From an uncultured virus (IMG/VR IMGVR_UViG_3300046010_001786) (taxonomy: Duplodnaviria; Heunggongvirae; Uroviricota; Caudoviricetes), in the IMG/VR virus record IMGVR_UViG_3300046010_001786: a stretch of DNA of 64,000 bases, one strand, 5' to 3'. The stretch's first letter is position 1. Every line of letters begins with the position of its first letter. The notes under the pieces were generated by a model. It was not told where the DNA came from, searched no databases, and saw nothing but the letters and a program-made list of their open reading frames with translations. The position numbers and the translations under genes are program-made. Positions 9,781 through 47,705 of the stretch are shown here, piece by piece.

Positions 9781-10440
9781 TTAGATAATCCTTCCACGGG
9801 TTTTGCCGCGCTGAGCAATACCGTCTGCGCGTTTTGATGCGACCATGCCACCCTTCTTCATGCCAGCAGCCTGTTCACGCATTCTGGTTCTAAATGCTTC
9901 AGCCTTGCGAGCAAGACGCCCAGATCCTGTCTGAGTATCTTCTTTTAAACGATTCTGTTCTTTGAGGTATGCAGCACGCTCTTTCTGCATGTCTGCCGCC
10001 TTCTTAGCGGCTGCTGTAGCGTCCTTGCCTTGCTCGTATGCTCTACGCTCATCACGGATATTGGAGGCCGTCAGAGCGGATTCCATGCGGTCTATGTCCT
10101 GTCCGCTTGGACCCATGGATTTTGGTGCTGGAGCTGCTGCCGAACCACGACGGGTAAGACCACGCTGAGCATTGAGATAGTCGCGCAGGTTATCAAAACC
10201 GGCTTTTTTCATCTGTTCTTTTGTTACAACCGCAGACTTGGCCGGCTTCGTTTTTGCCATATCTGCCATCGCCATTTCTCGACGATCACGATCATCTATC
10301 TGGCCCATCGTGCTTGCAAAGGTAGGACGCTTAGCAGCTTCCTCTGCCGCAGCTCGACCAAACCCACCAGTCTGCTCAAGACTGATGGCATCATCTTCAA
10401 TGCCGCCGCCAGGCGAATACCGTTTGACTTTGCGTTTCAT
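9781..10440 (-). CDS. Hypothetical protein with MKKGG...RADGIAQRGKTRG C-terminus
   Basis: Same C-terminal motif family as neighbours. Confidence 0.65.
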   Translation of the reverse strand: MKRKVKRYSPGGGIEDDAISLEQTGGFGRAAAEEAAKRPTFASTMGQIDDRDRREMAMADMAKTKPAKSAVVTKEQMKKAGFDNLRDYLNAQRGLTRRGSAAAPAPKSMGPSGQDIDRMESALTASNIRDERRAYEQGKDATAAAKKAADMQKERAAYLKEQNRLKEDTQTGSGRLARKAEAFRTRMREQAAGMKKGGMVASKRADGIAQRGKTRGRII

Positions 10441-10685
10441 AATTTCCTCTGCGCCATCGCGTCAAGTTTGGCCTCTAGTCTGCGGAAGCCGTCGTCAAAA
10501 TGTTCACGGATCTTATCCAGATCCTGCCGTACCTCTGCACGGGTAATGTGCTCCCGAGCTACCTCTTCCCGAGTCCTGTTAAGCAGGATGCTCAGACGGT
10601 TAAGTTCATCGAACTTACTTTTAAGCAGCATACCCATAATTGCCACTATCGCACTCAAAGCGATATTCCAAAGCATCATTTCCAT
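10437..10685 (-). CDS. Small membrane-anchored coiled-coil protein
   Basis: N-terminal hydrophobic helix then LLNRTREEVARE coiled coil. Confidence 0.6.
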   Translation of the reverse strand: MEMMLWNIALSAIVAIMGMLLKSKFDELNRLSILLNRTREEVAREHITRAEVRQDLDKIREHFDDGFRRLEAKLDAMAQRKL

Positions 10686-10967
10686 TTAACACTTCCACCT
10701 TTTTCTCGCTTGCCGAATACGGCTGTTGGGATCTTTGGCGGCTTCTGGAAACTGCTTCATCTGTCCAGCCGACCGCGCACAAAATGATTTGCGGCGCTTT
10801 GCCCGTTCTCCAGTAGGCTTGTCTTCTGTTACGGCAGTCTTGAGCTTTGACCCTGGATTGGCACGGCGATACGCTGCCACGCCTTTATCTGTCATACCAG
10901 CGCCCTGCTTAGTCGGACGGAAGTTGCCCGACTTCACAGAGGTTTTGATGCCCATGCCCTTAGCCAT
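10686..10967 (-). CDS. DUF6321-like basic protein
   Basis: RRKSFCARSAGQMK...DPNSRIRQARKRWKC. Confidence 0.6.
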   Translation of the reverse strand: MAKGMGIKTSVKSGNFRPTKQGAGMTDKGVAAYRRANPGSKLKTAVTEDKPTGERAKRRKSFCARSAGQMKQFPEAAKDPNSRIRQARKRWKC

Positions 10968-28000: not shown

Positions 28001-28156
28001 CTATTTGGCTATCAATGCCTGTATGAGTTCTGCCGATAGGATCTTAATATCAGCGGCGAGCTTCAATGCCTTCTCTTTATCGCCCTCTGTCGCCTCCCGA
28101 TAGAAGGCAACCATCACTAACTTTATGTCTTGGTACACCTCGGAATAGTCTCTCAT
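28001..28156 (-). CDS. Small hypothetical protein
   Basis: MRDYSEVYQDIKLVMVAFYREATEGDKEKALKLAADIKILSAELIQALIAK; ATGA coupling. Confidence 0.5.
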   Translation of the reverse strand: MRDYSEVYQDIKLVMVAFYREATEGDKEKALKLAADIKILSAELIQALIAK

Positions 28157-28980
28157 TCGCCACCCATCTTTTTAATCTTGGCCTTCAAGGAGTTTACCGT
28201 CTTCAATAACTCCGCCGCCTTTTGTTGGTGAATGTCCCTAGATTCCCGCAGCGCATCAATCTCGATGTCCTTCAATCGGATCTGTTCCCGCAGGTCTTTG
28301 ATCGTCTCCTCCACATCGGCCTTCTCTATGTCCGAGGCATCGAACTGACCCACGGCGATAGCATCTTTCAATCGATCATTCTCTTCCGATAGTTTATTGA
28401 TTGTGTCTATCAGCTCTGCCGATTGATTGTCTTCTTCTATCTCTTCCTCGGGATCGGCCTTTTTAGGCGCTCTGGGCGTCTTGCCAATGGCTGTGGTATC
28501 CATGGTCGCTTCTACCCCTGCGCGGGTGTAGGAGACCTCTTTGGGGGCTTCCTCAAGGGAGGATTTGATACGGCTCACGGTCATGTGTGAGCAGCCGATA
28601 TGCTCAGCCATCTTCCGGGTAGACCATGATCCCCAGACAGAGTGTTTGACCATCCGCGTAATCATCTCTTTGAGATCGTCTTTGGTGTACGACAGGCCGC
28701 GTCGTGCGCCCGCCCCCAAAGCAAAGAGGGTGGCATCATCTACGGTTCCCTTGTGCGTCTCTACTTCGATCTCTAATCCGCCGTTCTGCCGGGTTGCAAA
28801 GTAGCGGTGGAACCCATCGGCCAGCCAGTTATGTTTGCCGTCATTGAAGACGACGACAGGCGGGAAGACTGACCCGTCCTGCATCTGCTGCGCGTACTCG
28901 TTAATGGTCTCTTGATTGTTCTTGGCGCGGGCCTGCGTGTCGCCATCGATACGAATCTCGGTAAGTTTTAGTTTGGTCAT
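28153..28980 (-). CDS. ParB/Srx-like N-domain + HTH + coiled-coil protein
   Basis: TQAR...FPPVVV...LADGFHRY (ParB box II-like GxHR); STRKMAEHIGCSHMTVSRIK HTH; start refined to MTKLKL. Confidence 0.75.
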   Translation of the reverse strand: MTKLKLTEIRIDGDTQARAKNNQETINEYAQQMQDGSVFPPVVVFNDGKHNWLADGFHRYFATRQNGGLEIEVETHKGTVDDATLFALGAGARRGLSYTKDDLKEMITRMVKHSVWGSWSTRKMAEHIGCSHMTVSRIKSSLEEAPKEVSYTRAGVEATMDTTAIGKTPRAPKKADPEEEIEEDNQSAELIDTINKLSEENDRLKDAIAVGQFDASDIEKADVEETIKDLREQIRLKDIEIDALRESRDIHQQKAAELLKTVNSLKAKIKKMGGE

Positions 28981-28981
28981 T

Positions 28982-29818
28982 TTAATCTCCGCAGTAACAG
29001 GGAATAGCTTCTTGGTTGTTATCAAACATGTCTTGCTGGTTTAAGGCGTACTGGTGTAACTCTTTATAACTTGGCATGTCCTTTCTAAACCTGGCCCCGT
29101 CTCCAAAGGTTTTGTTGCTGGTCTGGGCGTGGTTCTCCATCTTGATCCACCAGAGCGCTCGGTCTGGCTTCTCTTTGATGAGGCTTAAGATTTGATTTGG
29201 GGTCTTAAGAAAACACAGGTCACAGTTCCCATGCATGGTGACGCCGTTCATGTTCGGCAGCTCAAGATCGAAAGTCTGAGCCTTCCAGAACTCTGATACG
29301 GTCTCTTTGGTTACACCTGCCGTGACCAATGGGGTGCGGCTGCGGTCTATCTTGGCTGCGCGTCGCTGCTCGTCAGCTCGGATACCGACCCAGTCTTCAT
29401 TCTCTGTGTGATCCCACCCAAGAGACCGGACATAGTTGTGAATCGTCCTGATCTTTAACTTTGCCGTGCAGATGCGGGCTACAGGGTTGGGAAGGTACGG
29501 GCTACCGTTCTGGTCTATCAGTTCAAAGAAGGGCTCGCCGTCTCTGCTTGCCGTCTCAAAGGTTACGCGCTTGAATCTTTGGCGCTGCTCTTCATGATAT
29601 CGATACTCCAGCCAGTGGATCTCGACGCCCCATTCACGCCCGCAGCGGTCGATGAACCGCAGGGTTTCTTCCATCTCTTTGCCCGTGTTGGCGAAGCAGA
29701 CAATGCTCTCAGAAGGAAGCCCGCCATTACTTTGCAGCACGCGCCAGAGCATGTAGGCCGAGGTACGCCCGCCAGAAAATGAAATGACGGTCGGCTCTGA
29801 GATCTTAAACGGATCCAT
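28982..29818 (-). CDS. PAPS reductase family (CysH/DndC-like) protein
   Basis: ISFSGGRTS PP-loop, FANTGKE, RICTAKLKI, GIRADE, GNCDLCFLK, terminal CYC. Confidence 0.85.
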   Translation of the reverse strand: MDPFKISEPTVISFSGGRTSAYMLWRVLQSNGGLPSESIVCFANTGKEMEETLRFIDRCGREWGVEIHWLEYRYHEEQRQRFKRVTFETASRDGEPFFELIDQNGSPYLPNPVARICTAKLKIRTIHNYVRSLGWDHTENEDWVGIRADEQRRAAKIDRSRTPLVTAGVTKETVSEFWKAQTFDLELPNMNGVTMHGNCDLCFLKTPNQILSLIKEKPDRALWWIKMENHAQTSNKTFGDGARFRKDMPSYKELHQYALNQQDMFDNNQEAIPCYCGD

Positions 29819-29831
29819 GTTCTCTCCTGTC

Positions 29832-30001
29832 TGTAACTATGTTACACCCTGTAACAATGTTACACCATAATTTTGAGGGAGCTACCCCCCTTTGTTGTTT
29901 TTAATCTTTAAGCTATCTCGTAGAACTACTTAACGACACCTGTCTGCTGGTGGGCAAGACTCAGCCATCCCAGATCGTCTTACTGTAACAGATGTTACAG
30001 T
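29832..30001. repeat. Three TGTAAC...GTTACA palindromes
   Basis: 29832-29846, 29850-29864 and ACTGTAACAGATGTTACAGT at 29982-30001. Confidence 0.9.
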
Positions 30002-30183
30002 TGATCTGGTGGCCTTTACAAAGTCTGTCCGCCGGAGCCGCTTTGACTCGCCAGTCGTTCGCTGCTGGGGCACTAGCTTCGCCACCCCGTTCTGATTCTT
30101 CCGCAGCTTTCCCCCAGTTTCAGATCTTTGGTCAGTGCGCTGGCGTTGAGACCCCGTCCACACAGACCGCAGTCGGAGCGCCC

Positions 30184-30322
30184 AAAAGAAAAACCCCCTA
30201 GGGAGGACTTGGGCTTGACAGGCCAGCATCGGGCGAACACCAAACGATGACTACAAGCCCTCTCTAGGAGGTTCTGGGTCTTAAAGGTGTTCGCCAAATG
30301 CCGGAGCGTCACTTCCGACAAC
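30184..30322 (-). ncRNA. Putative structured leader/antisense RNA (c4-like architecture)
   Basis: GGCGAACACC/GGTGTTCGCC complementarity; long AACCTCCTAGAGAGGGCTTG/CAAGTCCTCCCTAGGGGGTT stem followed by a U-tract; downstream of a promoter. Confidence 0.4.
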
Positions 30323-32795: not shown

Positions 32796-32989
32796 GCCCT
32801 TTCCCTCTCAACAAGGTTAAACGGGTCATGCCACCGAAAGGTTCTGGGCGTTATCTCGTAATACAAATAAACGTTGCACGGCCCTTTTTTCCTCTGCATC
32901 AGACCTTCTTCCACTTGCCTTTCCAACCGATGCCGCGCCATTTTCATCGAGATCTTTTTCTTCTTGGCAAAGTCTTTGATGGTCATCAT
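32792..32989 (-). CDS. Small HTH-like protein
   Basis: TIKDFAKKKKISMKMARHRL; WHDPFNL C-terminus. Confidence 0.55.
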   Translation of the reverse strand: MMTIKDFAKKKKISMKMARHRLERQVEEGLMQRKKGPCNVYLYYEITPRTFRWHDPFNLVERERA

Positions 32990-33312
32990 GTCCCGCGCCC
33001 CTTGCCTTGCTGCTTACAGGGCCACAGCGCCTCTAGCCTTGTCCTGACTATGGTGTCTGCGGAATAGTGACGAAGAGCAGGATTGGCCTCCAGGAACTTC
33101 TTGATAATGTCGTAGACCTGCCCGGCCTTTACTCCTTCTGGTGGGCAGACAGTGACGTTGATCGCGGAGTCCGCCGCGCCGAGCACGTAGCCCAGCGCAT
33201 GGATGTTATCCAAAGCATCCCCTTGCATGTCTTTGTAAAGGTTGTTTCCTGACATGAACTCAGCCTGCGCCATTGCTGGCACGAACAACAGACCTGCTAT
33301 TAGTTTTTTCAT
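32986..33312 (-). CDS. Rap1a-like (T6SS amidase immunity family) secreted protein
   Basis: Signal peptide MKKLIAGLLFVPAMAQA; SGNNLY, GYVLGAAD, CPP, Q...II.KFL..NP..RH..A, WPC. True start at 33312 (AAGGA RBS), not 33402. Confidence 0.75.
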   Translation of the reverse strand: MKKLIAGLLFVPAMAQAEFMSGNNLYKDMQGDALDNIHALGYVLGAADSAINVTVCPPEGVKAGQVYDIIKKFLEANPALRHYSADTIVRTRLEALWPCKQQGKGRGT

Positions 33313-33323
33313 GATTTCCTTTC

Positions 33324-33955
33324 GTGCCTCAGCACTCCTAACCTCACCCGTCCAGACCTCAAAGGGCCGTTCCTCATCTATCCTCTGCACACTTCCAGCC
33401 AAAACTCACCCCGACGCAACGAACCACTTCTAACCTTGACAGCCTCGCCAAACCCGACCACTCCGTGCCCCGCCGTAGATCTCCTTTCCCCGACAGCCAC
33501 ACCGCGCCCTACCTGGCCTTTTTCTAACTATCACCACCTAACCGTGTCAGCCAAAACTGACCATGTCGGACCTCTTTACACCTCTACGAATCAGTCCTTT
33601 CCTTTGCACACTTCCTGCCCAACCGGGCCTTACCCGAACTCGTTACAACTTGCCCGTCCGAACCTGGACAGCCGTAAATTACCTATCCCTTCCCAATCAG
33701 TCAGAATCTTTCTATGACGATCCGAACCCGAACAGCCGAATCTGACCGGACCACTATGGCCCTTCCAAAACCATCCGTGCCCATCCGTAACAGCCGAACC
33801 AATAACGACCCGACCCAACCTTTCCATAAATGTCCGAACCTGAACAGCCATACCAAACCGCACCCGTAGCAACCGAGCCCATCACGTCCGTTCCCCACCC
33901 TGACAGCCACACCAATAACGACCCGTCCAATCCAAAACCTAACCTTTGCACACTA
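33324..33955 (-). ncRNA. Putative guide-RNA array: 11 units of (GGN-NN)n pentamers, each ending in GGC(T/A)G or GGCAC
   Basis: Unit ends (cagcc/ctgcc/gtgcc on +) at 33904, 33845, 33791, 33733, 33669, 33615, 33548, 33494, 33440, 33396 and 33324; spacings 59,54,58,64,54,67,54,54,44,72; strong 5-nt GG periodicity; follows a RAMP-like gene and its partner. Confidence 0.85.
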
Positions 33956-34417
33956 CGCTGTTACGGTTTGCTGCGTTTCCTGAAGATTGGTGATTAATGT
34001 GCTCACTTGATCTTGCATCCCAAGAATCTCCGCATGAATCTTTGCCTTGTGCAGATGGGCATATGCACGGGCAAACTCCAGTTGAATAGATTCCCTTGCA
34101 AGATCTTTGTCCGTCTTGAGAGTTTCGATAGACACATACCCTTGCTGGTCGCTTGGCAATCTTGGATCACGCACATAACTCACCGCGCTAATCATCTTCG
34201 TTTCGTTGATGATGTTGATCTTTACGCTGGTTATGATCTGCCGCGCTTGGTCTAGCCGGTACGCATGGCCAGCCTTCTCGTCATCCCACTCAAATAAATG
34301 ATGCAGGATGCTGTCTGGCTTTTTAGCCTCTTCTACCAAAAGGTTGGGGGTTATCCCATTGTTCTCTTTGTAGATACGACTAATTTCAGCGTTGATGTCT
34401 TTGCGTGATGGCTTCAT
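33953..34417 (-). CDS. Accessory protein of the RAMP-like/array locus
   Basis: ITPNLLVEEA...LH..FEWDD..AG..YRL.QARQII; ATGA-coupled to the RAMP-like gene; stop codon abuts the array. Confidence 0.75.
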   Translation of the reverse strand: MKPSRKDINAEISRIYKENNGITPNLLVEEAKKPDSILHHLFEWDDEKAGHAYRLDQARQIITSVKINIINETKMISAVSYVRDPRLPSDQQGYVSIETLKTDKDLARESIQLEFARAYAHLHKAKIHAEILGMQDQVSTLITNLQETQQTVTA

Positions 34418-35184
34418 GCTGCCACCTTGATCCCACGGCGTTTGCTTTCTGTCTCAAACCAGGAGTACAACTCTTCAGTCTCTTGATCGTAGAACTTAGG
34501 ATTCTCTAGCGCATCCTTCTGAGCCTGACGCCCGCCATTAGCAATCACTTCCAAGAACTCAGGATCATCTGCTGTGGTGAGCTTGTAGCAACCAAAGTTT
34601 CCAGAACCCTTCTCCTGCCGCCAGTCGCCCAGACCAGACACGATGCCTGCTGCTGCCAACAGATTGGAAACCGACTGTTGATTCAGCAAGGGCACGGTGT
34701 AGGACATGGAAAGGTAGCAAGCCCACTTCCGCATAACTGCACGGGTCCGAACGTCTGGCGTCTTGTTGATGTCTGCCGACCGGGTAACAGCCATCATCAT
34801 CTCCGGGACTCCATAGATGTGGACGATCTGACCGTCAACATAGACCTGCCGCTTGATCTGGGTCTTTGCTACGCCAGGCATATCGAGCGCTGCCGTCATC
34901 ATGCCGCCCTTAAACCCTGTAGCTAGGACAGTAATCAACGTTGGATCGCTGTCATCCAAAGTAACGTATGGGCTATCCCGGTACTCTTGAAGCGGGTTGT
35001 GCTTCAGGCTGCTGGCCTTCTCTGCCGCGTTCTTTCTTGGAGCCGGGAAGAGTAGGGTCTGCAATACCTTCTGACTCATTCGGTTATGAATCAGCGGGGT
35101 GGTGCCCAAGATACAAAAGTTCAATGTCTCGCGACGCTGCTCGGTTACAAAAATTTCCGTACTAACTTCTTTCTTTGTTGCCAT
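34414..35184 (-). CDS. RAMP/Cas7-like RNA-binding protein (stand-alone)
   Basis: N-terminal strand LNFCILGTTPLIH, helix GFKGGM, C-terminal Gly-rich loop AGIVSGLGDWRQEKGSGNFG: the motif order of RAMP-superfamily proteins; no other cas genes. Confidence 0.7.
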   Translation of the reverse strand: MATKKEVSTEIFVTEQRRETLNFCILGTTPLIHNRMSQKVLQTLLFPAPRKNAAEKASSLKHNPLQEYRDSPYVTLDDSDPTLITVLATGFKGGMMTAALDMPGVAKTQIKRQVYVDGQIVHIYGVPEMMMAVTRSADINKTPDVRTRAVMRKWACYLSMSYTVPLLNQQSVSNLLAAAGIVSGLGDWRQEKGSGNFGCYKLTTADDPEFLEVIANGGRQAQKDALENPKFYDQETEELYSWFETESKRRGIKVAA

Positions 35185-39129: not shown

Positions 39130-39582
39130 ATGGTCTATTTAGGAATTGATCCAGGGTTCACCGGCGCATGGGGGTTGATCAACCACCACGGGGACTACAT
39201 CGGCTGCGGAGACATGATCCACAACGAAAAGTGGATCGACATAAATTCTGTCTATCGAGAAATATCTTTGATAAGAGAAAACGATGACATGATGATTGTC
39301 GTAGAGGCTGTCCATGCCATGCCCAAGCAGGGCGTCTCTAGTTCCTTCAAGTTTGGTATGTCCTACGGCGCAGCGCTATGCCTGGCTCAAAGGTTTCTGG
39401 AACAGTGGGAACTAGTGCAGCCTAGGGTATGGAAGCGCGACATGGGGCTCACAGCCGACAAGACAGACAGCCTGAACATGGCCCGCCAGAAGTGGCCAGA
39501 AGCCCCGCTAAAGCGCGTAAAGGACAACGGAAGGGCAGAGGCTCTGCTGCTCGCTGAATGGCTGCGGCAGGCTTACTGCTGA
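39130..39582 (+). CDS. RuvC-like Holliday junction resolvase
   Basis: YLGIDPG.TGA, VVEAV...PKQGVSSSFKFG, P..WK, DNGRAEALLLA. Confidence 0.85.
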   Translation: MVYLGIDPGFTGAWGLINHHGDYIGCGDMIHNEKWIDINSVYREISLIRENDDMMIVVEAVHAMPKQGVSSSFKFGMSYGAALCLAQRFLEQWELVQPRVWKRDMGLTADKTDSLNMARQKWPEAPLKRVKDNGRAEALLLAEWLRQAYC

Positions 39583-42500
39583 GTCTCTCTGACCCTGTCG
39601 TTGAACCGCTTCATCTGAACCATCATCTGGTTCTCAACCGCCTTGACTTGCTCCTTGGGGGCATCCTTCTCAATCAGCATATCCCGGCGCTTCTTCAGCT
39701 TCTGAATGTTGCGCTCGACCTGATTGGCGTAACCATATAGCCTGGCCTCGGGAAACTCCATGAGGTACTCACGGGTGGGAACCCTGTCTTTGATCCGCCC
39801 CTTGATCTCATTCTCATGCTTGTTGAGTTCGATGAGGTTGCTGTAGAAACGATTACGCTCAGCCGAGATGCCTGTGGTTTCGCCAATGAACCGGCCAACG
39901 AGCGGCACCTTGTAGATCGGCAGCTCTTCGCCAGTGAATTGACTTGTTACAGTCTGCTCGGCTTTGAGAATTTCACGACCAACACCGCCAGTCAACTGCC
40001 CAATAAGATAGTCAATTTGATCTGGAGTAGGGCTGATGATGCCAGGCTTGTAGTCTGTGCCACCGGTGGTTGCGTTCAAGTAGTAGGCCAGCTCTTTGCT
40101 CAATGCACTAGCGGCTTCCTTAGCGCGGGTGTAGCCTGGCGTGGGAGACAGGGAGCTGAAGTCTTCCTTGGCAATCGGCTTACCAGTCCAGTCCTTATTC
40201 TCAAAGAGCGCCACCAATGGATCGCCAACCGTCGGAGAGAATGTTTGGAACGACCAGCCAGCGTTACCTAGAGGGTTGAACATATCCAACAGAGAACCAG
40301 TCAACGACGCTACACGCTTCGGGGTCTCTTTGAATCCAGAAAGCGCCCACTCGGTTAGGATGCGTCCCGTGTTGGGAATGACGTTGTACCCAAGCGGCAT
40401 TGGAACAGTAAGGTATGTTGTGCTACTCACCGGGATAATAAAGTTTCGCTCTTTTACAAACTCTGGCGGTTCATCTTCATCAAAGCCCATGGCGGCAAGC
40501 ATCGCAGCCTGGGAAGAACCCATGATGATTCCGCCCCAGAAAATCTTCTTGCCAAGAGGGCTAAGCTCGTACCGCTTTCCGTTGAACCGGAACATGGTTT
40601 GGGCCATGCGCGTTGTACCTTGGACAGCAGCATTAAAGAACGCGTAGAGCGCGCCAGCCTGGCGACCAATCTGACCCTTGCGGTTAAAGTTCACCGTGAG
40701 ATCTTTAGCAAGATTTGCAGCCTGCTCCGTGGTAAATACGTTATTTCCCTGGGCATCTTTTTTGTCTAATGCTGCTTTGTATGCAGCCAGACGAATGGCA
40801 TTCTCCATAGACTGGTTGTAATCCTCCAACCAATTAAAGAGCGGCGCAGCCATCTTGCGTGCCGTTTCCATCGGAACTTTGAGCGTACCGTTTGCAGTGA
40901 ATACTTTGCCAAGAGGAGTCTTAGTCCAGGACGATGGATCTAGGATTGCTTGTAACGCATCAGCACGTTCTTGCATCCGACTAAACTGATCGCGGAATCC
41001 TGTCTGGCCACCCTCTTTCTGGAACTCTTCCCAGAGTTGCGACCATGTGCCCTTAAGAGGAGGTTTGCCAGCACGACGATTACGTTCCTCAGCATAGATG
41101 CCGCGCAACGCCGCTATGGTATCGCCCAAAATCTTCATCTTGTCACCAGCCAAAGGCGTGGTGTTGATCTGAATCATCGCGCCTTGAACGTCGCGCAAGA
41201 AGTTGATTGCACCAAAGATTGGGTTGTACTGAGTGTTGATCTTTGCGAAGTATTGGGTGAACTGCTGCATCGCCCCCATGACTCGGCCAAGATTGTCGGC
41301 ATCAAGATTTTTTAACGCCATGGCCATCCGCTTGGCGCGTTCATCCTGCGCGTTGAAGATGACGTATTTCTCTTTGCCGTTGATACGAACAGGGATCACG
41401 TACTCGGAGTTAAGTAGCGTCTTGTTCGGACGTTCAACTACCCTGTTGGTAGCCGCATCCACACTTCGTATTACTGGTTCTTTAATTATGTTGTCGATGT
41501 CCGCAGGGTTAAGTCCAAGCGCATTTAGCTCATCCCTAACCTTTTGAGGATCTTTCATGACCTCTGGGTCATATGCTAACCAGAACCCTGGGTTGGGATT
41601 GCTGACCACGAGACCATAAAGCGCTTTGCTAACCCTGAGCTTTTCTCCACGGACAATTGCACGCTCGCGTTGCTCAGCAAGGTTCGCAAGAATATCTACA
41701 ACCTTTCGTGACGAACCAACTGCTGCGCGACTGAACGGACCTTTGACAGCAATACCAGAACCAACACCAGTACCAATCTTGGTGATGTCGTATTCGCCTT
41801 CTTCGCGCTTCAATGGAACATAGTTCTGTAGCGCCTTGTTCCACGAATCAACTGTTTGTTGTGACTCTTGCCCCGTCTTAACGAGGATTTGTTGCGTATC
41901 CTTAACAATCTTATCTACCCGCTTAGCAAGGTCTTCAAAGACTTTCTTTTGCTGAGGAGTGAGACCTGCGAGGTAAGCCTGGGCGTCTTTCGTTAAGATC
42001 CCAGAACCACCATCAGCCATATTTGGATCGCGCTTTGCATTGAACTTATTGCGGGCCTCGGCATGACGATTGTGAAGATACTCTTCAAACTGTTCAATGT
42101 TAAGACCTTTTGCACCAAGCTCTTTAATCAGCGGCTCAAGGTCACCTTTTAAAAAGTCTTGAACCTGTTTAGATGTTCGCCCATGGAATAGCGTTTCTTG
42201 AAGATACGGATTCCAACGGTCAGCAATTTGCTTACCGGCTTTGCGAATGTTTTCTACCACACGTTTCGTATCAATTTGCTTGTCTTGCAACGTGTAGATG
42301 ACATTGTCCATCTTGCTTTCAATCGGAGCGTCCCATGATCCTTTTGGTATGGGCTGGCCAAATACGTTGGTCTTGATGTTCTCTAATGGAACAGGGCGAG
42401 CACCCGTCTCAGTCACATAGTCAGTCAATGACTGAATACCCATTGGCCTGGGCTCATCACGCATGATCTGGTCAAATACTTTGTGAACTGCGTATTTGTT

Positions 42501-45500
42501 GTTAAACCCAAAGACGTTCTTCAGTCCGTCAAAGTATTTCTTGATTGCTTTGACAAACCGATCCCAAGCCGTCCCTAGCTTAGACTTCATGAGCGTTTCA
42601 GCATTGATCGCCCAATACTCGGACGGGTTTAGATACTGATAGAACTCATAGGACGGCATAGCCTGGACCGCTGCCGCAAATGTTGCTTCACTAGGCGCAT
42701 CGAGGAATCCTAAGACCTTGCTAAAGTATTCTTGCGATGGTTGATCTTTGTTGGCCTTGACTGCTTTCTTCAGAGCATCCTGCCACGCATCAATCACAAC
42801 TTTGCGCTGCGCTTCAGTCATCATCTGTTCAAGCGAGTGCATGATCTCATGGCGAACTGAAGAAGGATCTTCAACTCCGCTTGTACCGTTCCACAAGGTA
42901 ACGATGCGATCAAACGGATTAAAGTTACCCGATGAACGACCAGGCTTCTTGGGAGTCCGTACAGACAAACGCAGGCCATTGAGTAGCCACGGCGTCTTGT
43001 TATATGCATCCTGAATAGATGCCAAGACATCAGCGCTCAAGTCGCCCTTGTCGTATGCCTCTAGTGCGCGACGCAAGAAGTTCTCCGGGGAGGTGCTAGG
43101 AGCATAGCCCGCTTCAATTTCAGACTTCAGCTCCTTCGACAACTCATCAACGAGGGTCAGACGCCGCTGTAAATCTACTGTAGCGCCACCTTCAATAACC
43201 CCCTGGACCAGACGTTCACGACGAGCACGAAGCGCAGCGTACTGGGCGATGATCTCGTCACGGGTGAGGGACGGGATCATTGTGGATTCTTGTTCCGTTA
43301 TCTGCGGCACCGTGTCGATGTTGTACAGGAAGTTCTCTTTCGACCCATACTCAACGCCGCGGGCAAGGATCATGTTGCCAATCTGCAATATTGCATCAGC
43401 TTTGACTACGGGCAGCGTAGTGCGCCGGTCATAGAAGTAAGCATGACGGGTGGGATCAAATCCTAGCTGAACATATCGAGGATCGTTAATAGCCTTTTGT
43501 GCCATTTCAAATGCGGTTGACGGGGACACATTGACATACTCACCCTCCATCGTCTGAAGCGCATCTTTAGCAGACCCGGCAGCAATCTCTAATGCTTTGG
43601 CCTGGTTACCCAGAGCAAACGTCACATTCTTTGCAAGCGCTACGCTACGGTATCCAATAGCCAGCCCAGGCTTTGGCGATGTAACTTTGGGGCGACCTTC
43701 ATGGATCGACACAACAAAGGTCTTGTGATTGTTCCACGCGGGAATGTCGAGACGCAGGCCCACCTTCGTACCATCGGGGATAGATACGTTAGCCTTGGGT
43801 TTCTTATCCGACGACAGTGCATTGACTACCTGTTCCTCTGTTGCGGGCGTCAATGGCTCTGTGTACAAAGGAATAGGACGGAACCGATTGACCGCTTGGT
43901 CGTATTCTTCCTTGGTTACTTTGCCTTCTTGCAAAAGCTCTGCCAGTGCAGCCAGCTCAGGCGAACGGCCAGGAGGCAGCTTCTTCTTGGCTTTGGGCAG
44001 GTTTTCATCGAGGTCTTTGATGGTCTTTGCATCTTCGCCAAAAAGGTCAGACTGAGGCTCTTGTACTTTGATGGTTACTTGCTCTTCCATCAACTTACGC
44101 ATATCAGACCAACTAAAGTATTGATAACCACGTTGGCTCGGTACTTTGGGTATCCGTAAAAAATCAAAGAGCTTAGATGTGTCTGGTGTTACTACACCCG
44201 GACGATCATCTGGAAAAAGGAATTTTGTTCTCCTACTAAACATCTGAGAGAACCGTTCGTACTGACCATTTGGTTTGATCCAAATGCCGTCTTCGACCGA
44301 TGGTCCAACTTTCTTAAGTGCATCCCTATCTCTCGATGCAACCAACAGACGACCGCCGCTTTGTGAAATAGCTAACCTAAATAGTGTTCGTGTGACTTGT
44401 TCAGGCGTTTTGTTTTTAAACGCATCATTGTCAATAGTTGTGATACCAGTTACGCTAAAATCGTTACCAAGAGCAATGACGACCATAGACTCAGGATTTT
44501 CGTCTACGCGTTTTGCTATCTCAAATGGGTGAAAAGCCTCGGACGCTGTCAAAGGATTTTTTTGCAGAAGTTCTTTCTGCCCCATATCCTTAGAATAAGT
44601 CTGTACGTATCCTTCAGGAGCAATTACTGAATACTTATTTGTGTCTATAACGATATGGCCTTTGTACGCTAGCTTTGTAAAAGCATTGGTAAAAGATTTA
44701 GTCATAGATTGATCGGCTTTGCTAACCTCCACGTTGCCGCTTGGGTGGTTGTGCAACATCCACACGCCAGTAGCGCCAGCTTGCACAGCCGCCTCTTGAA
44801 CCTTTTTCATGTACTCGATGCTGCTGTCGCCAACAATTGCAACCGCTGCCGCTGGCAAACGACTTGTTACACCGAGTTGAGAAACGACTTCATTTTTGTC
44901 ATTGACAAAGAACATACGAAAGGTCTCAAACCGGGGATGCCGGTAGACCTGAGACAGAACTGCTAGATCATCATGCCCAGTTACTTTTTGTCCAACGAGG
45001 CTGACCCGCTGTCGTCTTGCGTAGTCTGTGGAGAGGGCCAGAGCGAGAGGGTTGTCGGTGGACTGTAAAGCATCCACGGTGGACACGGCCTCCCGTCTCG
45101 CAGTTTTTCCGGCTTGATTGTCTTCGTTTGGCGGTAACTGGCTATTAGCAAAGAGGGAGAGTTGTTCTGCATTTTCTTTCTTCCTTTTGGTAACTTTCTC
45201 CGGGGTGACTTGCTCCAGCCCTTCAACACCAAACAGATCTTTTTGAGCACCAGGGGGCGTCGTTCTTTCTGGTGGCGTAGGCGGAGTAAGACTGAAGAAG
45301 TCGCGCTCTAGTTCCGCTCTTCTTCGTTCTTCTGGGCTTGGCTCTCTAATTTGAGGCGTTTCAGCTCTTCCAATATCCGCTTCTGAGATTGTAGGGGCAA
45401 CTCCTTCAGCCTCTCCAGCGCGTTCTTCTGCTGCGATTTCTGCGAGTCGGGCGTTGATTTGTCCAAGGGTCAGCTCCTTTGATAAGTTCTCAATCTTCTC

Positions 45501-47705
45501 GTCTATCACCCGCAATGCCATCTTGTCGTCTTCGGTCAAGAAGTCATTGTTCTCAATGCGCTCGATGATGTAGTCAACAGCATTACGAACCTTTGAAAAT
45601 TCATTGGGATCGTAAACATCCTCTGCACGCACGAATACTTTGAGGTCGTCAGGCAGGAAGTCGTTGAGCTGCTCGTCCTCAATCATTTGCTGCAATGGCT
45701 TGCCGCGACCTGTCTTGCTAACAAAACTATTTCGCCGAAGTGTTGCTCCTCGTCCCAGGCCAAAGTCAACACGCTTCAGATCTTCATCGAGCGTTAGCAT
45801 CCCATCTGGCAATGGGCGATCAGCGCCTTCAATCTTTGCAGGCTGAGCTGCTCTACCAGACAACAGATCAGCAAGGTTATTAAATCCCTTGGTGCCCTTG
45901 ATGCGGTTGTACTGAATGTTTAGCGCTCTCTGCTTGTCGCTAATGTCTTTGCGTGCAGTCAGCTCTTCCTCGGACAGGATTGGCTCTTTGCCAAACATCT
46001 TCTCTTCAAAGACTGTCTTTGGACCTTTCGCTGGTAACTCTGGTACAGCCTCGACCTCGGGAGCAGTGACCTCTGGGGGAAGTGTTGGCGGTGTCGTAAG
46101 GGCAATCTTCTCAGCCTCAAAAGTGTTGAGCTTAGCCGCTGCTACGTCAACGGCTTCTTGGCCAACCTTGTTCTTTTTAAACGCTGTCTCGGCCCGTTTC
46201 AGTTCCTGCCGGGCTTTGTTAATGTCCGTTTGTATCTCTTTTGCAGGACGACCAGCAGGTTTAATAACAGGTGGCGTAGGGGGCGTGATCGTACCAGCAG
46301 GGGGAGTAGGAGGCGTGACTGTCCCAGAAGGAGGAGTCGGTGGTGTTGGTGGCGTAACGCTTACGCCCGTAGGAGTTACGGGAGGTGTAACAGCAGGAGG
46401 CACTGTAACATTTGTTACAGTAGGCGCGACACCAGCAATCTGGGCGGCTATGTTATTGGCTTCATCGAAAGTGCCAAATGTTCCACCATCCTGCGTCTGT
46501 CCTGTTGCTGTGTCTATCATCAAGACTTGGAACTGACCGTTCGGAGCCGGGATGATCTGCGTTTCTGTCTGATCTGCGGGGTTTGTATATCCACCCAGGA
46601 TTCCTGCCGACGGTGTAACAGGTGTTACAGGAGGCTGTCCTGCGGGTGGCGTAGTGGGCGCAGCGGCAGTTGGCGCAGCAGATGGGGTAGCAGCGGGCGG
46701 CGTAGTAGTAGGAGCAGCGGCAGGGGTGGTTGGTGTCTGAGGCCCCTTATAAGCATCGATAGCTTCTTTCGTTGTTTGAACAGTAGATCCAAGTCCACCG
46801 CCCACAATCGCCCCTTCTAGCCCCGCTAGAGCAGCCTCTTCTAAATCAAATCCTCTTTGAGTCCCAGCGGTTTCTGCTGAATAGGTACCAAACTCTTCTG
46901 CAAACTCTGTGCCTGCTTGAACCCCAGTCTCTTTGGCAATTCTTCCGGGAGCCGTTTTTCCTGTTACCCCAGCACCAGGCAACAATCTGCCAGTAGCAAA
47001 TTTTTCAAATAATGTTTCAAACGCAGCAGCGCCAGCAGCGGCAGACACATCACCAACCGTGGCTTCGGCTAAAGTCTTCTTGTCATTTTCAACACGTGAC
47101 TTCAGTATCTCGTTGGTTCGTGCGGCAAAGTATGCCGGGGCCATTGAAACCGCAGCCGCCATGTCCGGGATGGAAGTTATTACTCGTTCAGCAATAAACG
47201 GGACGGCGTTTAAAGGATTTTCTGTAAGGTCTTTAAGCTCTGTGCTTGGCGCGTAACCAACGTCTTTCTCGTAGTTCAACGCCTTGTCCGCGAACTTCTT
47301 GCCTACCGTGTCAATTGGAAGTTCAAAGACCTGGTCTTTTGGAAGGCCAGTAAGGTTTGACATCAATTGAGCTAACGTGTCTGGAACTTCTAGTGCAGCA
47401 CCAGCCAACCCAGCAGTTCTGGCCACAGCACCCATCAATGGGTTTTGCGTCTTTACTTCGCCCGGTGCAATTGCCTGCGCTGGTGCAGACTCAGGCAGTA
47501 TTTCTGGCCTTGCCGCACTTAAGAATTTATCTAAGAAGCCCTGCTCTTCTTCTTTTTTAAATGGGTCTGCGATCTGCCACTCGTTATTGACTAGATATGC
47601 GAACTGTCCAGTCTCTGGATTCCGAGCGGTTTGTGACGGAGGAACCCACTGATTATTAACGAGGAACAGCACCTCACCAGTTTGAGGGTTGACTGCTCTC
47701 TGCAT
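39573..47705 (-). CDS. Giant (2710 aa) polyvalent internal virion/ejection protein with JAB/RadC, zincin-like and LPD38-like domains
   Basis: ETFRMFFV...HNHPSGNVEVSKAD...GHIVID (JAB); RHEIMH..E.WA (zincin); VNFNRKG...LYAFFNAAVQG and ENKDWTGKPI (LPD38-like C-terminus). Confidence 0.8.
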   Translation of the reverse strand: MQRAVNPQTGEVLFLVNNQWVPPSQTARNPETGQFAYLVNNEWQIADPFKKEEEQGFLDKFLSAARPEILPESAPAQAIAPGEVKTQNPLMGAVARTAGLAGAALEVPDTLAQLMSNLTGLPKDQVFELPIDTVGKKFADKALNYEKDVGYAPSTELKDLTENPLNAVPFIAERVITSIPDMAAAVSMAPAYFAARTNEILKSRVENDKKTLAEATVGDVSAAAGAAAFETLFEKFATGRLLPGAGVTGKTAPGRIAKETGVQAGTEFAEEFGTYSAETAGTQRGFDLEEAALAGLEGAIVGGGLGSTVQTTKEAIDAYKGPQTPTTPAAAPTTTPPAATPSAAPTAAAPTTPPAGQPPVTPVTPSAGILGGYTNPADQTETQIIPAPNGQFQVLMIDTATGQTQDGGTFGTFDEANNIAAQIAGVAPTVTNVTVPPAVTPPVTPTGVSVTPPTPPTPPSGTVTPPTPPAGTITPPTPPVIKPAGRPAKEIQTDINKARQELKRAETAFKKNKVGQEAVDVAAAKLNTFEAEKIALTTPPTLPPEVTAPEVEAVPELPAKGPKTVFEEKMFGKEPILSEEELTARKDISDKQRALNIQYNRIKGTKGFNNLADLLSGRAAQPAKIEGADRPLPDGMLTLDEDLKRVDFGLGRGATLRRNSFVSKTGRGKPLQQMIEDEQLNDFLPDDLKVFVRAEDVYDPNEFSKVRNAVDYIIERIENNDFLTEDDKMALRVIDEKIENLSKELTLGQINARLAEIAAEERAGEAEGVAPTISEADIGRAETPQIREPSPEERRRAELERDFFSLTPPTPPERTTPPGAQKDLFGVEGLEQVTPEKVTKRKKENAEQLSLFANSQLPPNEDNQAGKTARREAVSTVDALQSTDNPLALALSTDYARRQRVSLVGQKVTGHDDLAVLSQVYRHPRFETFRMFFVNDKNEVVSQLGVTSRLPAAAVAIVGDSSIEYMKKVQEAAVQAGATGVWMLHNHPSGNVEVSKADQSMTKSFTNAFTKLAYKGHIVIDTNKYSVIAPEGYVQTYSKDMGQKELLQKNPLTASEAFHPFEIAKRVDENPESMVVIALGNDFSVTGITTIDNDAFKNKTPEQVTRTLFRLAISQSGGRLLVASRDRDALKKVGPSVEDGIWIKPNGQYERFSQMFSRRTKFLFPDDRPGVVTPDTSKLFDFLRIPKVPSQRGYQYFSWSDMRKLMEEQVTIKVQEPQSDLFGEDAKTIKDLDENLPKAKKKLPPGRSPELAALAELLQEGKVTKEEYDQAVNRFRPIPLYTEPLTPATEEQVVNALSSDKKPKANVSIPDGTKVGLRLDIPAWNNHKTFVVSIHEGRPKVTSPKPGLAIGYRSVALAKNVTFALGNQAKALEIAAGSAKDALQTMEGEYVNVSPSTAFEMAQKAINDPRYVQLGFDPTRHAYFYDRRTTLPVVKADAILQIGNMILARGVEYGSKENFLYNIDTVPQITEQESTMIPSLTRDEIIAQYAALRARRERLVQGVIEGGATVDLQRRLTLVDELSKELKSEIEAGYAPSTSPENFLRRALEAYDKGDLSADVLASIQDAYNKTPWLLNGLRLSVRTPKKPGRSSGNFNPFDRIVTLWNGTSGVEDPSSVRHEIMHSLEQMMTEAQRKVVIDAWQDALKKAVKANKDQPSQEYFSKVLGFLDAPSEATFAAAVQAMPSYEFYQYLNPSEYWAINAETLMKSKLGTAWDRFVKAIKKYFDGLKNVFGFNNKYAVHKVFDQIMRDEPRPMGIQSLTDYVTETGARPVPLENIKTNVFGQPIPKGSWDAPIESKMDNVIYTLQDKQIDTKRVVENIRKAGKQIADRWNPYLQETLFHGRTSKQVQDFLKGDLEPLIKELGAKGLNIEQFEEYLHNRHAEARNKFNAKRDPNMADGGSGILTKDAQAYLAGLTPQQKKVFEDLAKRVDKIVKDTQQILVKTGQESQQTVDSWNKALQNYVPLKREEGEYDITKIGTGVGSGIAVKGPFSRAAVGSSRKVVDILANLAEQRERAIVRGEKLRVSKALYGLVVSNPNPGFWLAYDPEVMKDPQKVRDELNALGLNPADIDNIIKEPVIRSVDAATNRVVERPNKTLLNSEYVIPVRINGKEKYVIFNAQDERAKRMAMALKNLDADNLGRVMGAMQQFTQYFAKINTQYNPIFGAINFLRDVQGAMIQINTTPLAGDKMKILGDTIAALRGIYAEERNRRAGKPPLKGTWSQLWEEFQKEGGQTGFRDQFSRMQERADALQAILDPSSWTKTPLGKVFTANGTLKVPMETARKMAAPLFNWLEDYNQSMENAIRLAAYKAALDKKDAQGNNVFTTEQAANLAKDLTVNFNRKGQIGRQAGALYAFFNAAVQGTTRMAQTMFRFNGKRYELSPLGKKIFWGGIIMGSSQAAMLAAMGFDEDEPPEFVKERNFIIPVSSTTYLTVPMPLGYNVIPNTGRILTEWALSGFKETPKRVASLTGSLLDMFNPLGNAGWSFQTFSPTVGDPLVALFENKDWTGKPIAKEDFSSLSPTPGYTRAKEAASALSKELAYYLNATTGGTDYKPGIISPTPDQIDYLIGQLTGGVGREILKAEQTVTSQFTGEELPIYKVPLVGRFIGETTGISAERNRFYSNLIELNKHENEIKGRIKDRVPTREYLMEFPEARLYGYANQVERNIQKLKKRRDMLIEKDAPKEQVKAVENQMMVQMKRFNDRVRETQQ

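Follow-up and report, generated by a model that had tools for sequence, protein, structure and literature searches.

A Putative VIPR Locus in a Lake-Water Phage Carries Guides That Read Catalytic Motifs of P4-Type Integrases

Results

The Locus and the Published Framework

The 64,000-nucleotide stretch analyzed here, called the window below, is a phage genome segment from an uncultured virus of lake water (IMG/VR record IMGVR_UViG_3300046010_001786). Most of its genes lie on the minus strand and include those for terminase, capsid, an SU10-type adaptor, primase, helicase, Erf and a nuclease; the terminase is about 54% identical to aquatic phage terminases. On this strand the window encodes a 256-aa Cas7-like RAMP protein and a 154-aa protein, followed by a non-coding tract of about 620 nt (about 33324-33944) that is built of pentamers. 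We consider it likely that this locus is a VIPR system, composed of a Vipr protein, an accessory protein and a staggered array of about 12 guides, and that it serves to silence integrases. Three of the guides, U1, U5 and U2, read codon positions 1 and 2 of three catalytic-domain motifs on one strand of one gene.

VIPR systems combine a minimal RAMP protein, named Vipr, with an accessory vap gene and with vrRNAs made of tandem GGY/NN pentamers (10.64898/2026.04.26.720920). In the VIPR preprints of 2026, Vipr has an RRM core, a glycine-rich loop and a thumb, and the adjacent accessory genes are named vap1-6. One protomer covers one pentamer; GGY is buried, and NN reads double-stranded DNA, passing over one base in each unit. 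This base coincides with the codon wobble in natural targets, which may lie on either strand, and binding represses transcription. A vrRNA comprises at least four pentamer units (9-16 in type II), and "a related consensus" as well as internal degeneracy are allowed. Seven VIPR types are distinguished, some of them with "staggered arrays" in which vrRNAs overlap by 1 nt (10.64898/2026.04.26.720920, Fig. S18 legend). The published target criterion is a match of at least 80% of the read letters. The type II VIPR of Escherichia phage SUSP1 is described as Vipr, vap1 and four vrRNAs that silence the excision recombinase of F5 satellites; when vipr or vap1 is missing, the satellite excises, replicates and lowers plaquing 10^4-fold (10.64898/2026.10.15.759431).

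The vipr Gene and Its Accessory Gene

The first clue to the identity of the locus was a weak match of the 256-aa open reading frame (ORF) to the PDB entry "SUSP1 Vipr protein" (E 0.029). With a profile built from 30 homologues, SUSP1 Vipr chain 36pp_D was matched at E 4.7e-4 over 49 residues, and the alignment pairs GvGDWR of the query (G184-R189) with the SUSP1 G-loop. Residues G184, G186, D187, W188 and R189 are invariant in these 30 homologues. According to the structure paper, D177, W178 and R179 of SUSP1 Vipr hold G1, G2 and Y3. The AF2 model of the window protein reached a pLDDT of 81, and its top Foldseek matches in the PDB were the Csm3/Cas7 chains 9nq7_E and 6ifn_F (E 5.6e-6). Pfam and NCBIfam searches with this protein returned no family. 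Homologues are numerous: 1198 proteins were found at E<=0.001, and in IMG/VR 467 loci were confirmed. Proteins that share about 29% identity with the window Vipr (E down to 1e-14) are entered as "hypothetical proteins" in 30 records of Gordonia and Mycobacterium phages, for example at 10358-10966 of Gordonia phage ODay.

The 154-aa accessory protein corresponds to phrog_15946, a family whose function is not annotated there, and its AF2 model reached a pLDDT of 95. We inspected the best 80 vipr loci for the same arrangement. In 73 of these 80 loci a vipr-sized ORF is succeeded by one of 120-200 aa, and in most of them an ORF of about 155 aa lies between vipr and the tract. By our count, 68 of the 80 have a same-strand GG tract with a period of five.

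Architecture of the Array

The tract lies between the accessory gene and a Rap1a-like ORF (32986-33312, minus strand). Its minus strand is rich in G (41%) and poor in C (14%). Dense GG at a 5-nt period is confined to it, with 44 GG/GG+5 pairs compared to at most 7 elsewhere in the window. Neither tandem repeats (TRF) nor a tRNA or an Rfam family were found in the tract, and a search for inverted repeats was likewise negative. A coding region was considered as a reading of the tract and rejected, as nothing was found.

The motif GGCTG occurs nine times on the minus strand of the tract. Cutting between GGCTG and a following T yields units of 60, 55, 59, 65 and 55 nt, and then of 68, 55, 55 and 45 nt. 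Every unit consists of 5-13 successive pentamers, in a register one base behind that of the preceding unit, so that the next unit opens with GTYNN and shares the G of the preceding GGCTG. A typical unit has about 55 nt and is built of GGYNN pentamers; units abut each other, and the closing pentamer is a constant GGCTG or GGCAG. Of the 113 pentamers, 73 start with GG, and their third base is T in 32, C in 21, A in 20 and G in none, i.e., Y in 53 of 73. The first pentamer (GTYNN) is read, that is, matched by the targets described below, and the letters of non-GG pentamers are matched as well, including those inside U1. The last pentamer (GGCWG) is not matched (unit match 0.19-0.47). Three boxes (GTGTGCAAA or GTGTGCAGA; GAA precedes both inner ones) divide the tract into three sub-arrays, and the 12-nt spacer boxes are the sole separators between them (Table 1).

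Table 1. Features of the locus in the window. Codon readings refer to the reverse complement of the guide.
Feature	Position	Strand	Description
vipr	34414..35184	-	256-aa Cas7-like RAMP protein, presumed guide-binding subunit
vap-like accessory gene	33953..34417	-	154 aa; overlaps vipr stop; between vipr and array
Leader box GTGTGCAAA	33945-33953	-	First of three boxes; precedes U0
U0, short unit	33933-33904; two more pentamers at 33944-33935	-	Repeats 3' part of U2
U1	33845..33904	-	12 pentamers; x-M-K-A-R-Q/H-E-H-R-V-P-L
U2	33791..33845	-	11 pentamers; x-E-K-R-R-Q-L-M-C/W-D/E-W
U3	33733..33791	-	U3a 33791-33757 and U3b 33757-33733; one-base register slip inside
U4	33669..33733	-	13 pentamers, five without GG; x-V-L/F-Y-L-Q/H-R/S-D/E-L/F-I/M-D/E-D/E-R
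U5	33615..33669	-	11 pentamers; x-H-G-F-R-S-T-F-R-D-W (integrase box II)
Spacer box GAAGTGTGCAAA	33603..33614	-	Separates sub-arrays 1 and 2; recurs at 33384-33395
Sub-array 2	33396..33602	-	U6x 33602-33548, U7 33548-33494, U8 33494-33440, U9 33440-33396
U10	33324..33383	-	12 pentamers; ends at ribosome-binding site of next gene

Guides That Read Integrase Genes

For decoding, positions 4 and 5 of each pentamer were joined with one wildcard per unit, and the reverse complement was read as codons. The ten read units of U5 (20 letters) were matched exactly in at least 120 stretches of species genomes, while about one chance match is expected for 20 fixed bases in 596 Gb and two strands. We fetched 80 of these loci with their flanks and determined where the other guides match relative to the U5 site. 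The best U1 site lies 174-180 nt upstream of it, with a mean match of 18.4/24 and a maximum of 22/24; shuffled U1 averaged 14.3 and did not exceed 17 (20 shuffles, every fourth locus). The best U2 site was found at +132 in 51 of the 80 loci (maximum 20/22, locus L131); for U4, 28 loci had their best site at +105 and another 16 had it at +126. These offsets from U5 all fall on one strand and are multiples of three, and the offset counts of U1, U2 and U4 were reached by none of 100 shuffles. Only U1, U2 and U5 among the units within 33620-33903 reached 80% of the read letters.

In the loci with enough flank, the translated targets are PAERMKAxxEHRVPLS, HGFRSTFRDWAAE and EAAYRRGDLFEKRRxLMxxWA, which contain the motifs MK..EHRVPL (U1), HGFRSTFRDW (U5) and EKRRxLMxxW (U2). 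The skipped base lies on the codon wobble in these sites. Across the footprints, the majority base has a share of 0.76-0.96 at read positions and of 0.52-0.54 at skipped positions. The integrase guides read in antisense direction. All 12 target ORFs tested carry Arm-DNA-bind_3 (PF13356), Phage_int_M (PF22022) and Phage_integrase (PF00589), a domain set which we take to be that of a "P4-type" integrase. In a second set of 12 ORFs, ten had all three domains at E<=1e-8 and one had two, while one ORF was not called. The NCBIfam integrase domain PRK09692 was also recognized in the targets with E about 4e-39, below the family cut-off.

Two metagenome contigs with genes for MKARHEHRVPL integrases contain an exact match to the eleven read units of U1 (22 letters); in these contigs U5 matched with 18-19/22 and U2 with 14-16/22. 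With up to two mismatches, U1 was present in 14 of 401 genomes of one betaproteobacterial order, compared to one for the reversed pattern. Guides besides U1, U2, U4 and U5 did not match above background near integrases, neither within 10 kb on either side of five of them nor within 9.5-14 kb of 12 more.

An earlier note on this DNA, made from the sequence alone, had proposed that 33620-33903 is a guide array of a phage that lacks an integrase and therefore aims at foreign ones. The array is real, as judged by its period-5 tract and its units joined at GGCTG and T, but within this range U4 is poorly matched and U3a and U3b have no target. None of the 88 ORFs of the window matched PF00589 or a resolvase family at E<=0.001, and a tblastn search of the window for which a target integrase served as query reached no better E than 1.6, so that the absence of a recombinase was borne out. 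The long guides match the window itself at 65-78%, just as shuffled guides do. The short U0 (83%) and U3b (90%) alone exceeded 80% there, and so did their shuffles. Since no guide matches the window above shuffles, we regard the guides as foreign-directed, as the note had assumed. Its expectation that several guides converge on one integrase family agrees with the common three-domain set. The co-occurrence of four patterns in one gene, which it had put up for testing, held for U1, U2 and U5, which hit the same ORFs on one strand and in frame; U4 joins them by position only.

Other Guides of the Array

For the ten read units of U8, at least 120 viral contigs gave an exact match. Patterns of equal length yielded none in that collection for U1 and U7 and one for U10. 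The U8 match lies on the guide-sense strand, in frame, in the GKDTGTVRFDDG motif of phrog_2480 proteins. PHROGs assigned six of six target proteins to this family, and Pfam recognized none of ten. In proviruses, phrog_2480 genes adjoin genes for a Sak4-like annealing protein, phrog_2300 and an excisionase-like gene. The U8 target is a conserved early gene of proviruses and not an integrase. Five proviruses with a U8 site had no U5 site at up to three mismatches, and the two target classes hence do not belong to one element. Five records of named phages contain the U8 target family (about 41% identity) and gave no host lead.

The single exact ten-unit match of U10 in viral contigs (21/24 overall) lies in frame in a Prim-Pol/PriCT_1/VapE-like primase; one match of this kind is no more than suggestive. 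The offset counts of U0 and U3b relative to U5 were not significant compared to shuffles. We also considered the vipr genes of rival phages as targets and rejected this idea, since no long guide reached 80% in 77 related VIPR loci.

Relatives and Environmental Occurrence

In a close relative (L003:4430-5070 and L016:30-670, compared with window 33290-33990), the same array is present, with U3 and U4 exchanged for one different unit. Scattered changes fall mostly on NN positions, and U6x contains a cluster of changes. These differences look like a cassette-like turnover of guides. The joint motif in relatives is GGCAG followed by T, and boxes similar to the spacer box stand after GGCAGG.

Two contigs of 449 and 581 nt from freshwater DNA runs (X5 and X9) match the U5 unit only (33618-33667, seven differences) and run on into other GGCAG-bounded units. 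Different natural arrays therefore have the box-II integrase guide in common. Words of seven units matching the same integrase sites were also present in eight related loci (L024, L025, L026, L033, L047, L048, L077 and L079). The Vipr proteins of the more distant relatives that hit integrase sites are 50-89% identical to that of the window. Seven-unit words found in at least two integrase loci occurred in 13 of 80 related arrays, compared to 4 and 2 in the register controls. For words that target proviruses no such excess was seen in related arrays (14 loci vs. 20 and 14 in the register controls).

The array and the vipr-vap region had no DNA match among named phages, and the nearest record, G001, begins inside the vap-like gene (about 34073) and lacks the array. 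The window or parts of it were detected in 20 runs of 15 studies, all of them from lake, freshwater or other aquatic samples except for one marine one, in which its share was small. One run marked "RNA?" covers parts of the array as contigs but may be DNA.

Elements Behind the Targeted Integrases

A P4-like or PICI-like satellite is small, carries an integrase, AlpA and a primase or replicase, and lacks virion genes; P4-like satellites also have psu, sid and delta. We examined the gene contexts of 17 matched integrases, covering in one set the 64 ORFs closest to the integrase out of 102 and in the other 146 of 168 (ORFs below 215 nt dropped). In L237 and L238 the integrase is adjoined by a tRNA-Ser gene, which in L236 stands at a distance of 7 kb (tRNAs sought in five loci). 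Beside this tRNA, L237 combines the integrase with PriCT_2, Toprim_3 and DUF927, and L239 combines it with AlpA and DUF3987. Primase or helicase genes stand downstream in further elements, namely DUF5906 (L398), AAA_25 (L395 and L403) and DUF3631 together with a gene of a capsid family (L401). Excisionase-like HTH_17 genes are present in L393 and L399, and an SSB gene in L393. Defence genes comprise CBASS-like SMODS, AGS_C and SLATT_6 (L395), AIPR with Vsr and a cytosine methylase (L403), and HamA (L404). A relaxase (Mob_Pre) is encoded in L402, and arsenic and copper resistance genes with IS elements in L397. The other contexts hold mostly small ORFs without assigned function, and psu, sid and delta were not seen among the 17.

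The view that this integrase family borders small primase-bearing elements and defence-carrying islands is thus supported by the 17 contexts, which give no preference to any one of the satellites, PICI-like elements and defence islands named in the earlier note. The earlier note had further expected that the best-matching integrase would name the host and the competitor, and this did not hold. Exact U5 matches occur in Alpha-, Beta- and Gammaproteobacteria, in Acidobacteriota and in single members of other phyla, and the only feature common to all 17 contexts is the integrase. Since what the guides read are conserved protein motifs, the host cannot be told from their matches. Apart from these, hints at a host come only from a Betaproteobacteria-1 RNA in the window, described below, and from the lake or freshwater source of the runs in which the phage was detected. 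Targeting of integrases alone, as it was originally pictured, is also incomplete; it fits U1, U2 and U5, but U8 has a provirus early gene as its predicted target.

Discussion

Relation to Known Systems

The locus resembles the SUSP1 VIPR in being phage-borne, with a RAMP protein that has a GxGDWR G-loop, GGYNN guides and a small adjacent accessory gene. Both systems read two bases and skip the third, on the codon wobble, without self-targeting, and in both a recombinase belonging to a resident mobile element is targeted where its codon positions are nearly invariant. The differences are clear, however. The likeness of the two Vipr proteins is seen at the profile level only. SUSP1 has four vrRNAs, whereas the window carries about 12 guides of 9-13 pentamers, tolerates A at pentamer position 3 and directs at least three guides at the recombinase instead of one. 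An invariable 3' tail of about 40 nt after each repeat tract, a trait of type II that contains a pseudoknot within the SUSP1 clade, is absent from the window array, whose units abut. We therefore do not file the locus as type II. Its target is a subfamily of P4-type tyrosine integrases across phyla, whereas the F5 recombinase matched a P2 DNA invertase and a PICI-like integrase. Finally, the window phage stems from lake water; SUSP1 is a coliphage. 

The array shares with staggered vrRNA arrays the 1-nt overlap, by which the end of one unit marks the start of the next. This architecture appears to fit the wording of the Fig. S18 legend, a comparison that concerns the legend and not the figure itself. 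The fold, the use of one subunit per fixed stretch of guide and the periodically flipped bases recall the Cas7/Csm3 backbone of class 1 CRISPR systems. Unlike these, the locus has neither CRISPR repeats nor other cas genes, and it combines a 5-nt period with non-contiguous reading of DNA. A further parallel is vibriophage ICP1, a lytic phage whose phage-encoded CRISPR-Cas targets the chromosomal PLE satellite. Both are phage-carried RNA-guided systems against a chromosomal parasite of phages, but ICP1 destroys its target DNA, whereas VIPR of this class is described as a transcriptional silencer, here directed against a gene family.

A Model for Integrase Silencing

By analogy with SUSP1, the RNAs of the array would be made and cut at the joints. 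One Vipr protomer would then bind each pentamer, hide GGY and expose NN, and the NN pairs would read double-stranded DNA two bases on, one off. During infection, such complexes may occupy the target genes and block their transcription, as the SUSP1 system does. With their integrase silenced, resident islands and satellites would fail to excise and to exploit the phage, and resident prophages might be hampered through the U8 target. The phage thus probably stops integrase-bearing elements from cutting themselves out; for the window, a block of integrase transcription and excision is proposed on the SUSP1 precedent.

Several results weigh against this interpretation. The match of U4 does not exceed 17/26 (65%), which equals the best shuffled guide, and since it stays below 80% this guide is supported by its position only. 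No integrase was found that U1, U2 and U5 all match at 80% or more; the best joint matches for U1, U2 and U5 are 19/24, 20/22 and 21/22 in L131, and 22/24, 16/22 and 21/22 in L145. Coverage is narrow. Among 30 integrases chosen regardless of the guides (the best 30 of 72 Arm-domain loci in 41 genomes), three reached 80% for any guide (U5 three, U1 one, U2 one, U4 none), with shuffles at 1-4 of 1200 locus-shuffles. The guides cover about a tenth of P4-type integrases, a subfamily. U0, U3a, U3b, U6x, U7 and U9 found no target among the sequences fetched, and 35% of the pentamers lack GG, so that some units may be decayed. A scan for sigma-70-like promoters returned no site, and terminators numbered zero on the array strand and one on the other. 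The 154-aa protein belongs to no Pfam or NCBIfam family and has no significant fold match; the best Foldseek E was 0.62, and the best Z of the wide VIA search (8.0) concerned the C-terminal helical hairpin only. The islands behind the matched integrases are heterogeneous, and silencing of an integrase would not disarm a defence island.

We weighed three other explanations. The locus could be a VIPR system whose integrase guides are aimed at temperate phages and integrative elements in general, as rivals, and not at phage-parasitizing satellites; silencing would then trap prophages or halt induction-linked excision. The U8 target speaks for this, being a provirus early gene beside genes for a Sak4-like annealing protein and an excisionase-like protein, as do the capsid gene in island L401 and the SSB and HTH_17 genes in L393. 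In P. fulva, 48 of 66 guide targets mapped to resident prophages (10.64898/2026.04.26.720920). On the other hand, the five proviruses with a U8 site lack a U5 site at up to three mismatches, a virion gene lies within 9.5 kb in only one of the 17 contexts, and L237, L239 and L398 are small primase or AlpA elements of the satellite or mobilizable-island type. We regard this explanation as unlikely, if still the strongest of the three.

The integrase-like guides might instead be inert relics, copied or drifted from an integrase or shared by descent, that match through motif conservation alone. The pentamers without GG, the poor match of U4 and the exchange of whole units between close relatives would suit such an origin. 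Relics would not be expected, however, to keep 20 of 20 read letters in U5 and 22 of 22 in U1, or to have target-matching letters in the non-GG pentamers within U1. The match is furthermore limited to pentamer positions 4-5 (13 loci vs. 4 and 2), and the same integrase sites are matched by different arrays whose Vipr proteins are 50-58% identical. We consider relics quite improbable. It is hardly conceivable that the tract is no guide array at all but a GGA-rich CsrA/RsmA sponge, an iteron or partition site or a G-quadruplex region. Its sequence is G-rich, C-poor and full of GGA, and a ParB-like gene lies 4 kb off, but a strict 5-nt period with register-specific gene matches under the two-on, one-off rule, the linkage seen in 68 of 80 relatives between the tract and a Cas7-like gene, and the lack of inverted repeats and of an Rfam family all contradict this. 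The CsrA-sponge and iteron ideas were dropped on account of the period-5, register-specific gene matches.

Implications

VIPR silencing of a satellite recombinase is already published for SUSP1 (10.64898/2026.10.15.759431). What is added here is the coverage of a tyrosine-integrase subfamily by several guides, the mixture of target classes in one array, and the finding that targets do not give the host. Returning to a VIPR system that silences integrases, we hold tentatively, at a little less than an even chance, that its guide set is directed at the catalytic motifs of an entire integrase subfamily and reads there only those bases that determine the amino acid. The motifs are the lysine hairpin, the His-x-x-Arg box and the stretch that directly follows the tyrosine. 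The array would then be a broad-spectrum weapon that is hard to escape, rather than one that tracks a single satellite. If this is true, any island or satellite using that integrase would be immobilized in whatever host, further guides would cover prophage early genes and perhaps the primases of elements, and environmental VIPR arrays could be read as catalogues of the mobile-element functions that phages most need switched off. The findings would extend the result from a single coliphage and a single satellite family to an uncultured lake phage, a distant Vipr clade and a tail-less staggered array. Details such as the read GTYNN, the constant unmatched GGCWG and the matching non-GG pentamers could guide experiments on staggered arrays.

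Other Features of the Window

The gene directly after the array (32986-33312, minus strand) encodes 108 aa and fits Rap1a (PF18602, E 2.5e-15), a type VI secretion immunity family; a signal peptide is apparent, with the N-terminus judged by eye. This gene is kept in seven viral loci (51-100% identity), and the array lies upstream of it only in close relatives. At 28153-29818 (minus strand), a ParB-like gene overlaps a PAPS-reductase-like gene (phrog_1033 and phrog_424) and adjoins the helicase/primase block. A 2710-aa polyvalent protein is encoded at 39573-47705 (minus strand). It contains a RadC-like JAB domain and LPD38 and has a DarB-like antirestriction match; the phage probably injects it as an anti-defence protein.

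Some 3 kb downstream of the array, within the early region, the Rfam Betaproteobacteria-1 RNA (RF02932) was recognized at full length at 30046-30168 (minus strand), with 91.3 bits compared to a gathering score of 49.4. It overlaps a mechanically called ORF of 99 aa (29930-30229) and is a possible hint at a betaproteobacterial host.

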